Below are positions 55,306-56,680 of a stretch of DNA of 64,000 nt, piece after piece; position 1 is the stretch's first letter, and every line of letters begins with the position of its first letter. Under the pieces are notes generated by a model. The model worked only from the letters and a program-made list of their open reading frames with translations, searched no databases and was not told where the DNA came from. The position numbers and the translations under genes were made by a program. Source of the stretch: Escherichia phage Eryne; the sequence record PQ529420. One strand, written 5' to 3'.

Positions 55306-55511
55306 TACCTAAATAAAGATGATAGCTTTTACCTATCAAGAACGTTCACCGAAAAAAGTGAATAGATCGCGGTATCGAGCTAATCAAGGAGCAGATGAAC
55401 AACCATACCATGAAGATCATAAGGCGCTTACAGCGTGTTTTAGACCGCTTATTTTTAATTTCTTCATGCAACTATCTGGCAAAAACAGCCTTTTTCTCAT
55501 CTTTCCTCTTA

Positions 55512-55582
55512 AATGATAATCATTCTTATTTATAGCTGATTATTTATGCAATAAACTGCATAATGCAATAATGACAATCATT
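55512..55582. promoter_or_regulatory. two Fur-box-like palindromes
   Basis: AATGATAATCATT (perfect 13-bp palindrome, identical to E. coli Fur box core) and AATGACAATCATT, both followed by CTTA. Confidence 0.45.
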
Positions 55583-55599
55583 CTTAACTTAAGACCATC

Positions 55600-56450
55600 T
55601 AACTTATAAAATAATAAGTTATCTAACTAAATTAAAGCTAATTATCTTACTTTTATTTATAACATACTGTTACTATCTTATTGATAACCTTATATTAAAC
55701 AACAATAATCAATGTAAATCATTACTAAGCTAACTATAATCTATCTAACCCTTAAAACTATAACTATAATCTATCGAATTGTTGCACAAAGTAACTATTA
55801 AATTGTTAGTAACATTGCTAAATAATTAATATCCTATCTATTTATGATCTAATCTTTACCTTCCTATTTATCACCTAACTAATCATTTCATACAGTAATC
55901 ATTCCATATAGTAATCATTTCATACAATAACTATAACAAGAAATATAATTCGCAAGCGTATCATTAGCAGCCTATGCCGGACACATAGGCGGCTAATAAT
56001 AACGCAACTACACACCCCACATAATAACCATCACCGATAGTTATTATTTGTGTTTATGTAGCTTGCAACAATTGCAAGCGCAACAATATACATGGTATAT
56101 TGTATCCCTTACATTGTTGCGGTGCGTTATTATTAGCTAATGTTTAGAACATTGGCTATAATATAAGCTAAATAATAAGCTATACAATAATAAACATCGT
56201 GAATAATGATGCTGATGATCATAATGCGCCACCTTCCAGGGGGGCGCTATGTGAACACAAAGAAATCTTTCTTGTCAAGAAAAATATTAACACTATTGCG
56301 CAAAATTATTTATAACTGAATAGATGATTTTTCATACTATTGCCCCTAATTACTTACTATTTGTTGCAATGTATTCCCCCTATTTGTTGAGCCTATTCTC
56401 TTAAAAGCGCAATAAATCAGAATTATCTTGATTTTTAGGTAGTTTTATAG
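55600..56450. repeat. AT-rich non-coding region with short tandem repeats and inverted repeats
   Basis: No ORF >60 aa; TAATCATTTCATACA x3, AACTATAATCTATC x2, palindromes GCTTGCAA-caa-TTGCAAGC and GCCTATG...CATAGGC. Confidence 0.6.
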
Positions 56451-56462
56451 TATAGAAAATAT

Positions 56463-56481
56463 GCAAATGATAATCATTATC
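56463..56481. promoter_or_regulatory. Fur-box-like site (17/19 match to GATAATGATAATCATTATC)
   Basis: gcaAATGATAATCATTATC read directly. Confidence 0.5.
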
Positions 56482-56647
56482 AGCTATCTTCCACGGGTGG
56501 CACTATTTCACGCCAGATCATTTCATTTGGCAAGGTGTATATAGATGTTTAGACTTGCCAAGTTATTGATTTACTTAGAATTTATCTGTTTTGTTGTGAG
56601 TAGTACCTTTCTTGCTCAGAAAATAATCAAAAGTCTTATAAGTCATT

Positions 56648-56680
56648 GAATGATAATGCAAATGATAATTATTCTCATTG
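56648..56680. promoter_or_regulatory. Fur-box-like hexamer array
   Basis: GAATGATAATgcaAATGATAATTATTCTCATTG; two AATGATAAT units. Confidence 0.45.

Follow-up and report, generated by a model that had tools for sequence, protein, structure and literature searches.

In bacterial iron genes, the Fur box is a textbook element. The operators that most resemble those considered here are found at ryhB, gpmA, fhuF, fhuA and entC of Escherichia coli, and iucA carries a further iron-regulated Fur operator. On temperate phages, stx1 is a cargo gene under the control of a Fur box. In temperate lambda-like phages, a single Fur box also lies upstream of the cargo operon sitABCD, which is expressed in the lysogen (PMC6969025). 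Here we describe arrays of Fur-box matches in two non-coding regions of a 64,000-nucleotide stretch of Escherichia phage Eryne (record PQ529420; this whole stretch is referred to below as the window), where a first-pass annotation made from the letters of the window had pointed to exact copies of the E. coli Fur box core.

The phage sites share with the E. coli operators the 19-bp motif and equal scores, the natural ATTCTCATT variant that is also present at gpmA, ryhB, fhuA and exbB, and the organisation into overlapping sites offset by 6 bp and clusters for several dimers (PMC2189734). The ryhB promoter, in which TGCGAATGAGAATGATTATTATT spans the spacer and the -10 element, is likewise similar in layout to the phage arrangement. 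Unlike the E. coli operators, the phage sites are carried by a virulent phage and adjoin no iron gene, a terminal repeat contains two of the clusters and a conserved non-coding element adjoins another, and most boxes are without a convincing conserved promoter. The sitABCD and stx1 phages resemble this phage in carrying a host Fur box on phage DNA, whereas here arrays occupy the non-coding and terminal regions of a strictly lytic phage. Judged by their sequence, the arrays are of a known kind, the Fur operator, in a new setting. Full-text literature searches on lytic phages, T5 and the Stephanstirmvirinae turned up no description of Fur boxes there, the one hit being sitABCD on temperate phages. 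They gave no report of conserved multi-site Fur arrays in the non-coding ends of strictly lytic phages, nor a transcriptome of this phage group or published data on Fur binding to such sites.

Fur-box matches in two non-coding regions

The region at 55250–57050 is 93–96% identical to Justusliebigvirus genomes (e.g. Paula, EmilieFrey and inny), and on this sequence identity the source phage is a virulent, phi92-like Justusliebigvirus of the subfamily Stephanstirmvirinae; its phi92-like relatives are myoviruses with a genome of ~146 kb. Between the homologue of gp248 (the last phi92 gene, which ends at 55264) and the first of the left-end small genes lies 1.7 kb without credible genes (55265–56980), which holds clusters A, B1 and B2 of Fur-box matches. 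A second non-coding stretch, between the gp223 and gp226 homologues (43976–45455), holds cluster C. All sites lie in these two stretches, in agreement with the intergenic location given in the first-pass annotation.

Exact copies of the 13-mer AATGATAATCATT, which had been placed near 55512 and 56466, are present at 55512–55524 and 56466–56478, and one-mismatch copies occur not only at 55570, 56661 and 44415, as previously noted, but also at 44438. These six distinct sites with at most one mismatch compare with 0.35 expected, and none of 100 dinucleotide shuffles reached six. The 13-mer had been called a perfect palindrome; it is an inverted repeat of the form 6-1-6 (AATGAT-A-ATCATT) and falls short of perfection, since the centre base changes on reverse complementation. 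At 56468–56482 there is a perfect 7-1-7 motif, TGATAATcATTATCA. The earlier count of 17 of 19 matches to the classical Fur consensus near 56466 was reproduced for the 19-mer at 56463–56481 (GCAAATGATAATCATTATC), and sites that match at least 15 of the 19 positions number five, against 0.49 expected.

To avoid reliance on a remembered consensus, a Fur matrix was learned with an unseeded Gibbs sampler from 14 Fur-regulated promoter regions of E. coli K-12, which were picked with the footprint coordinates of Chen et al. 2007 (PMC2189734) as a guide. The consensus of this de novo matrix was AATGATAATCATTATCATT, and its training sites scored 11.4–26.2 bits (site scores here and below are in bits on a uniform background unless stated). 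When the window was scored with the matrix, nine sites of 16.0–26.2 bits were obtained (Table 1), equal to or above most authentic E. coli sites. On a background of phage composition, eight sites reached at least 14 bits where 0.25 were expected, and six reached at least 16 bits against an expected 0.06. Stricter null models were trained only on the AT-rich non-coding regions, with the phage sites included; under these, 0.02–0.16 sites of at least 18 bits (uniform background) were expected against the eight observed, and the maximum in 1000 simulations was four. The first-pass annotation had allowed that equally good matches might be found at random in AT-rich phage DNA, which is not what these simulations gave: the enrichment of the motif is real and is no artefact of composition.

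Every strong site falls in one of three clusters, C, A and B (B1/B2). Strong sites are paired exactly 6 bp apart at 56460/56466, 56655/56661 and 44409/44415, and this organisation as hexamer arrays with overlapping sites is that of footprinted Fur clusters, of which 6-bp offsets are typical and in which overlapping sites take up several dimers (PMC2189734). In the complete genome of EmilieFrey, 10 of the 11 sites of at least 14 bits lie in clusters C, A and B, and the remaining one in a tail-fibre gene.

The 55265–56980 region was aligned across five genomes from three clades (the window phage, a second Justusliebigvirus, two Phapecoctavirus phages and Klebsiella phage KP2025), with a mean column identity of 66% and large indels. 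Identity was 0.84 in the box columns versus 0.71 in the remaining non-coding columns (permutation p ~0.017). At A1, all five genomes have a box of at least 21 bits at one alignment column, and the 58-bp spacing of A1 and A2 is kept in KP2025; at B2, a box of 22–26 bits likewise occupies one column in five of five, with the Phapecoctavirus array shorter by exactly one hexamer (6 bp). B1 is kept in four of the five genomes (Justusliebigvirus and Phapecoctavirus), and a KP2025 box ~25 bp downstream of the B1 position points to site turnover. Substitutions within boxes preserve a high score (at least 21 bits). The boxes are conserved islands across genera.

Table 1 Fur-box clusters and neighbouring features, in window coordinates except for the last row (scores from the K-12 Fur matrix, uniform background)
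Feature	Position	Strand	Score (bits)	Description
AT-rich direct repeats	44190–44395			~67 bp, 2–3 copies, immediately left of cluster C
Cluster C	44409–44473			three tandem Fur-box matches
Box C1 (site 44415)	44415–44433		24.2	TATGATAATCATTCTCATT; partner shifted 6 bp at 44409
Box C2 (site 44438)	44438–44456		19.7	
Box C3 (site 44455)	44455–44473		21.1	AATGAGAATTTTTCTCATT
Candidate promoter P_C	44452–44481	+		-35 GCAAAT (44452–44457), -10 GAGAAT (44476–44481), predicted start ~44488
Conserved non-coding element	44482–44695	+		TCTTTACA-N4-TCTTTACAAA, then ACCGGCGATC, then GTTAGCCCCGCCTTTACGCCGTGGGGGTGGCG and T-rich tail
Candidate sigma-70 promoter P_rev	44536–44563	-		-35 TTGCTT (44563–44558), 16-nt spacer, -10 TATTCT (44541–44536)
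Terminator-like site	44659–44695			invariant 3' hairpin with T-rich tail, end of the conserved element
Three tandem near-consensus sigma-70 promoters	45115–45403			just upstream of the gp226 homologue
Terminator	55280–55298			3' of the gp248 homologue, the last right-end gene
Cluster A	55512–55588			two box matches, 58 bp apart
Box A1 (site 55512)	55512–55530		24.6	AATGATAATCATTCTTATT
Inverted repeat between A1 and A2	55544–55550 / 55557–55563			TTATGCA / TGCATAA
Box A2 (site 55570)	55570–55588		16.0	
Degenerate B-type unit, extra copy	56202–56226		12.7	AATGATGCTGATGATCATA; then CCAGGGG, as after B1 and B2
Direct terminal repeat	56390–56732			343 bp, one copy in the window
Cluster B1	56460–56484			in the terminal repeat, 70–94 bp from the left virion end
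Site 56460 (B1)	56460		18.4	overlaps site 56466
Site 56466 (B1)	56466		18.9	overlaps site 56460
Best local sigma-70-like promoter	56527–56555	+		TTGGCA-17-TAGACT, 12.7 bits
Cluster B2	56646–56690			in the terminal repeat, 42–86 bp from the right virion end
Site 56655 (B2)	56655		18.9	
Site 56661 (B2)	56661		26.2	AATGATAATTATTCTCATT; top score of the window, equals gpmA, the best training site
Shewanella phage 1/4 box cluster	12913–13101 of the extracted locus			

Arrays of the same motif are also found in other phages. On the K-12 matrix, copies 1–4 of the T5 direct repeat C, together with palindromes E–I (9468–9637), are Fur-box arrays of 20–26.5 bits. These arrays (9473–9636 of AY587007.1) adjoin the shear point of first-step transfer (9618) and the 7.9% nick, in repeat region 3 (the injection stop signal, iss) of the left terminal repeat, within conserved non-coding DNA past a terminator. 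The detailed treatment of the T5 repeats by Davison calls on DnaA boxes and does not mention Fur (10.1101/866236), and Fur is likewise absent from the other T5 literature searched. T5 and the window phage are alike in having arrays in conserved non-coding DNA of a terminal repeat (B1 and B2; A and C lie outside it). T5 differs in that it is an unrelated phage with a 10-kb repeat, in that its arrays lie ~0.5 kb from the inner end of the repeat, and in its neighbouring DnaA boxes (10.1101/866236), whereas the window shows no DnaA-box enrichment (10 matches to TTWTNCACA versus 11.2 expected, none of them in the two non-coding regions).

In the RaK2-like Klebsiella jumbo phage Muenster, an array at 784–903 and single boxes at 1076, 1303 and 2425 all lie in the first 2.5 kb of the terminal repeat predicted by PhageTerm, and the three single boxes, of 26.5 bits each, are directly followed by TAC(A/T)GT. 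Shewanella phages 1/4 and 1/40 carry a four-box cluster ~120–290 bp from the record end, in sequence that occurs twice in the record. A scan of viral contigs (IMG/VR) gave 71 loci with at least three sites of at least 13 bits; since single exact hits in that collection were close to a rough chance estimate, only multi-site clusters were taken as evidence. The survey of phage groups was not systematic.

At the level of sequence, these data strongly support the idea that host Fur is the protein that binds. The matrix scores, the 6-bp partner sites, the conservation across genera and the presence of the motif in unrelated phage families make it probable that host Fur occupies the arrays in vivo, and this part of the earlier proposal stands. 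Host Fur is also the economical binder, because the arrays are found in unrelated phages whose hosts share Fur.

Two lambda-like temperate phages, mEp043 and mEp213, have a strong Fur box ~170 bp from the right end of their records, under an annotated promoter. The E. coli gene nohA is a Qin-prophage homologue of the lambda packaging gene Nu1. Fur sites upstream of nohA have been confirmed by Chen et al. (PMC2189734).

Candidate promoters, a conserved element and the terminal repeat

The counterpart of cluster C holds four or five boxes in Paula and EmilieFrey and four to six across relatives, and it stands upstream of a conserved non-coding element. Over 240 bp (~44455–44700), the sequence is 72–87% identical to unannotated DNA of PVP-SE1, 4MG and Proteus, Pectobacterium, Klebsiella and Raoultella phages. 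The core of the element is present in seventeen loci, 16 of which, across subfamilies, have one to six boxes upstream of it. Hairpin-loop lengths vary in non-multiples of 3, which marks the element as non-coding. The element has no Rfam match: no Rfam family was detected at gathering thresholds in the whole window, and a search of both non-coding regions at E ≤ 1 gave no meaningful match. The element, of ~200 nt, is conserved across the Stephanstirmvirinae as well as in these other phages, and could represent either a new phage RNA or DNA to which a protein binds. A role as a sponge or mimic of RyhB was considered and rejected, as the duplex energy of either strand was within ~1 standard deviation of shuffled controls.

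At the box nearest to the element, the layout TTGAAT / GAtAATCATTCTCATT / TG / nAGAAT is conserved in 16 loci. In the window this position is taken by the candidate promoter P_C, of which box C3 fills the 18-nt spacer; its -35 hexamer is TTGAAT in most relatives. Such a layout suggests the design of a Fur-occluded promoter. The candidate promoter P_rev points the other way, into cluster C, which lies at ~+55 to +120 from its predicted start. In the sequences compared, the P_rev hexamers are conserved (TTGCAA/TTGATC/TTGCTT and TATATT/TATTAT/TATTCT) at a spacing of 16–17 nt, with the spacer sequence free to vary. Because P_rev fires into cluster C, the arrays could also act as a transcription roadblock. 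Further right, the three tandem promoters at 45115–45403 (TTGACG-17-TATTAT, TTGACG-17-TATCAT and TTGACA-16-TAAGAT, with an upstream TG) are likely the early promoters of the right-end small-gene block. A further promoter-like match on the minus strand (TTGACA-17-TATACT, 44734–44706) was set aside as probably spurious, as it overlaps the terminator of the minus-strand gene 44737–45003.

The direct terminal repeat (DTR) was placed in the window by base-for-base alignment with both 343-bp terminal repeats of Salmonella phage UAB_1. In the phi92 reference record, DTR-L occupies 1–343 and matches DTR-R, window position 56455 being phi92 position 66, and a 342-bp DTR has been assigned by PhageTerm in phage BME3 (PMC12210895). 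As B1 and B2 lie inside the DTR, both are present in each repeat copy, and a cluster lies within 100 bp of each virion end. B1 contains both the perfect 7-1-7 motif (TGATAATCATTATCA) and the 17/19 match, and runs directly into TATCTT (56485–56490). B2 is built of GATAAT-like hexamers, four forward and three reverse (TTGAAT GATAAT GCAAAT GATAAT t ATTCTC ATTGAT ATTTGA), and its box at 56661 runs directly into GATATT (56680–56685). A TAnnnT-like hexamer directly follows each of B1, B2 and A1.

Between B1 and B2 is the best local sigma-70-like promoter, which is directed toward B2 and the left-end small genes and overlaps the inverted repeat TTGGCAAG...CTTGCCAA. KP2025 has TTGGCA-17-TATTAA at this place with a different spacer, and the promoter is not kept in Phapecoctavirus. 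Promoter candidates picked by eye at clusters A, B1 and B2 have poor -35 elements.

Within the DTR, a segment of ~95 bp (~56492–56590) is inverted in 2 of 54 related records, e.g. in phage pEC-M2929-1AR.1. The inverted segment carries the best local sigma-70-like promoter and is flanked by the imperfect inverted repeat GGCACTATTTCAC / GTGAGTAGTACC. An invertible promoter switch was considered and dismissed, the inversion being confined to those two records, which probably represent one lineage; it is a rare variant. Just left of the DTR, CTATTTGTTG occurs twice (56357–56366 and 56380–56389), with the second copy abutting the first base of the repeat, and the relative M2929 has more copies. Both DTR boundaries are followed by AGC (TGTTG|AGCC and CGCGTTA|AGCAC; right boundary region 56722–56745), and their flanks are invariant across genera. 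The repeats and flanks at the DTR boundaries are candidate terminase recognition or cutting sites.

Possible roles of the arrays

The best explanation of the arrays, which we favour with a confidence somewhat above even, is that they are host-Fur arrays kept by selection and that they gate transcription of the terminal control regions by iron status. For the consequence of Fur binding itself, we regard transcriptional gating through promoter occlusion combined with a roadblock as an evenly balanced proposition. In an iron-replete cell, Fe2+-loaded Fur dimers would line up on the hexamer-phased arrays and would occlude host RNA polymerase, or stand in its way as a roadblock, at weak promoters of the sigma-70 type, whether these have a box built into them or fire into the boxes. 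In a box-embedded promoter of this kind, the first 3 bp of the box would form the end of the -35 element and the box itself the spacer, with TAnnnT directly after it. In an iron-starved cell, apo-Fur would depart and the transcription units would open; the units gated in this way would be the element adjoining cluster C and transcripts that run from inside the terminal repeat toward the left-end small genes.

Several observations weigh against gating of transcription by iron. The first-pass annotation had proposed that Fur couples phage early expression to iron status, and this coupling goes beyond what the sequence supports: the strong promoters of the right-hand gene block are 650–950 bp from cluster C, and a simple hexamer model gave no sigma-70 promoter that overlaps A, B1 or B2 and is kept in all three clades. 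The -35 of the box-embedded promoter at cluster C, GCAAAT, is poor in this genus, matching TTGACA at one of six positions. Cluster A starts 214 bp past the terminator at 55280–55298 and has no gene after it for more than 1 kb. An RNA fold of the conserved element is without covariation support (the RNAalifold covariation term is only -0.9 kcal/mol), and its 3' hairpin is invariant. In T5, the arrays are in a convergent non-coding region, where the flanking genes converge and no gene lies downstream. Finally, the recurrent association with terminal repeats hints at a role at DNA ends rather than at promoters.

This last point leads to the main rival explanation, which we consider unlikely: Fur would be recruited to the terminal repeats in a structural role associated with the ends, and any effect on transcription would be secondary. 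Possible functions of this kind are to hold or stop the entering DNA, to protect or pair the ends before concatemers form, or to aid the terminase at the repeat boundaries. The placement of B1 and B2 in the 343-bp DTR, less than 100 bp from each virion end, is consistent with such a role, as are the T5 arrays by the shear point and the 7.9% nick with no downstream gene, the twice-present Shewanella cluster near the record end, and the Muenster array and single boxes in the first part of the predicted terminal repeat. Clusters A and C are at odds with it, since both lie outside the DTR, C by ~12 kb, and since C travels with the conserved non-coding element in other subfamilies. In addition, the Muenster boxes resemble promoter operators, the earliest transcription units are likewise located in terminal repeats, which may make the association an indirect one, and the phage groups on which it is based were not surveyed systematically. 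We know of no end-related activity of Fur.

A wider generalisation can be put forward tentatively, at rather less than even confidence: host Fur-box arrays would have arisen convergently as a hallmark, not recognised until now, of terminal repeats and terminal non-coding regions in virulent phages that infect enterobacteria and related bacteria, with Fur as a factor recruited for an early step linked to the DNA end. That step could be the stopping or anchoring of injected DNA, the handling of ends, or the iron gating of first transcription, and T5 direct repeat C and palindromes E–I would then be Fur sites.

An improbable further explanation is that the arrays act against silencing, in that they recruit Fur to AT-rich DNA and so displace or exclude H-NS, as at ftnA; when iron is present, Fur would then favour phage transcription or keep the regions in an open state. 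Fur and H-NS recognise similar DNA (PMC3788343), and ftnA has several upstream Fur sites that relieve its repression by H-NS (Nandal et al. 2010, via review PMC3788343). The phage arrays resemble the extended upstream Fur site of ftnA in having several tandem boxes in AT-rich DNA upstream of a promoter (here a candidate one), with three to six tandem boxes in DNA of 23% GC. Nothing singles this mechanism out, however, and several boxes overlap promoter-like hexamers, which is a better fit to repression.

We see only a slim chance that the arrays serve as a sponge, in which at least ten dimer sites per genome would titrate Fur, de-repress iron uptake and RyhB, and thereby feed iron-dependent ribonucleotide reductases. 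In the Fur titration assay, a multicopy plasmid with one Fur box de-represses a Fur reporter, and the phage is similar in presenting many high-affinity boxes on a high-copy replicon, although the assay is itself a plasmid artefact of the laboratory, and titration by the phage would be either a side effect or an evolved function. With ~10 strong sites, each genome copy would add to the titration, and the phage has genes for ribonucleotide reductases of class I and class III and for a glutaredoxin. An E. coli cell contains roughly 5,000–10,000 molecules of Fur. A sponge would need no conserved positions, no location in a terminal repeat and no link to a conserved element, and its benefit would arrive late in infection. 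Moreover, T5 degrades host DNA early, which would make de-repression of the host useless, yet it has like arrays.

Slimmer still is the chance that another protein reads the arrays, either an early one of the phage or some other host factor, with the likeness to Fur boxes due to coincidence or mimicry, although the phage does encode several small predicted transcription factors. The first-pass annotation had offered a phage regulator with a Fur-like operator as its second possibility, and this is disfavoured: a tblastn search with E. coli Fur found no homologue in any Stephanstirmvirinae phage, on which ground a phage-encoded Fur was rejected, and the motif is common to phages that share only a host group. 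The features of a phage-repressor operator, namely a DNA-binding protein of the phage's own and a motif private to the lineage, were not found. With a matrix trained on E. coli promoters alone, the sites are on a par with the best Fur sites of E. coli; they show 6-bp phasing and hexamer arrays, and T5-like, RaK2-like and Shewanella phages have the motif without an obvious common regulator. That the matches are functionless chance or neutral repeats is very improbable, for while AT-rich DNA inflates weak matches and single exact hits are expected in a large viral collection (a rough estimate), the AT-rich nulls fall far short of the eight sites of at least 18 bits, positions are conserved across genera, and the complete relative has one stray site of at least 14 bits outside the clusters.

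If host Fur does bind these arrays, the first DNA brought into the cell would be where phi92-like phages read or exploit the iron status of the host. Such phages infect a broad range of hosts and attract therapeutic interest, and gut, urine and blood are iron-limited; the outcome of infection could then depend on iron in a way that tests in rich medium would miss. The T5 arrays make a host factor at the injection-stop site, if there is one, testable with a fur mutant. The conserved ~200-nt element, which two subfamilies of large myoviruses share and which Fur boxes precede, is a candidate for a phage RNA regulated by iron.

Other features of the non-coding regions

The AT-rich direct repeats beside cluster C were reported by Tandem Repeats Finder at 44190–44320 (period 67, 2 copies), and a third, more diverged copy is visible. 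Relatives annotate a repeat_region left of cluster C, and the GC content over 44140–44480 is 23.5%. Near the Fur clusters of the other non-coding region, a 16-bp unit, TAATCATTTCATACAG, forms three AT-rich tandem copies at 55880–55930. No tRNA genes were found in the window.

The block at 55960–56140 is strongly conserved across genera. In it, a perfect 15-nt inverted repeat (55992–56006 / 56123–56137; GCTAATAATAACGCA) encloses the hairpin GCTTGCA-N5-TGCAAGC (56061–56079), and the block is a candidate for an origin, for a packaging signal or for a structured RNA.

A separate unit, in which AAAGGGGTGTG is followed ~14 nt on by TATA(T/C)(A/C), is present in three copies (44002–44012, 56799–56809 and 56876–56886). 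It is confined to the two non-coding regions and kept in Phapecoctavirus, and may be a phage-specific class of promoter just upstream of the left-end genes.

Four records labelled as Campylobacter phage (MG065639, MG065645, MG065656 and MG065689) are ~95% identical to the E. coli phage over the non-coding region, and are probably mislabelled or contaminant genomes.

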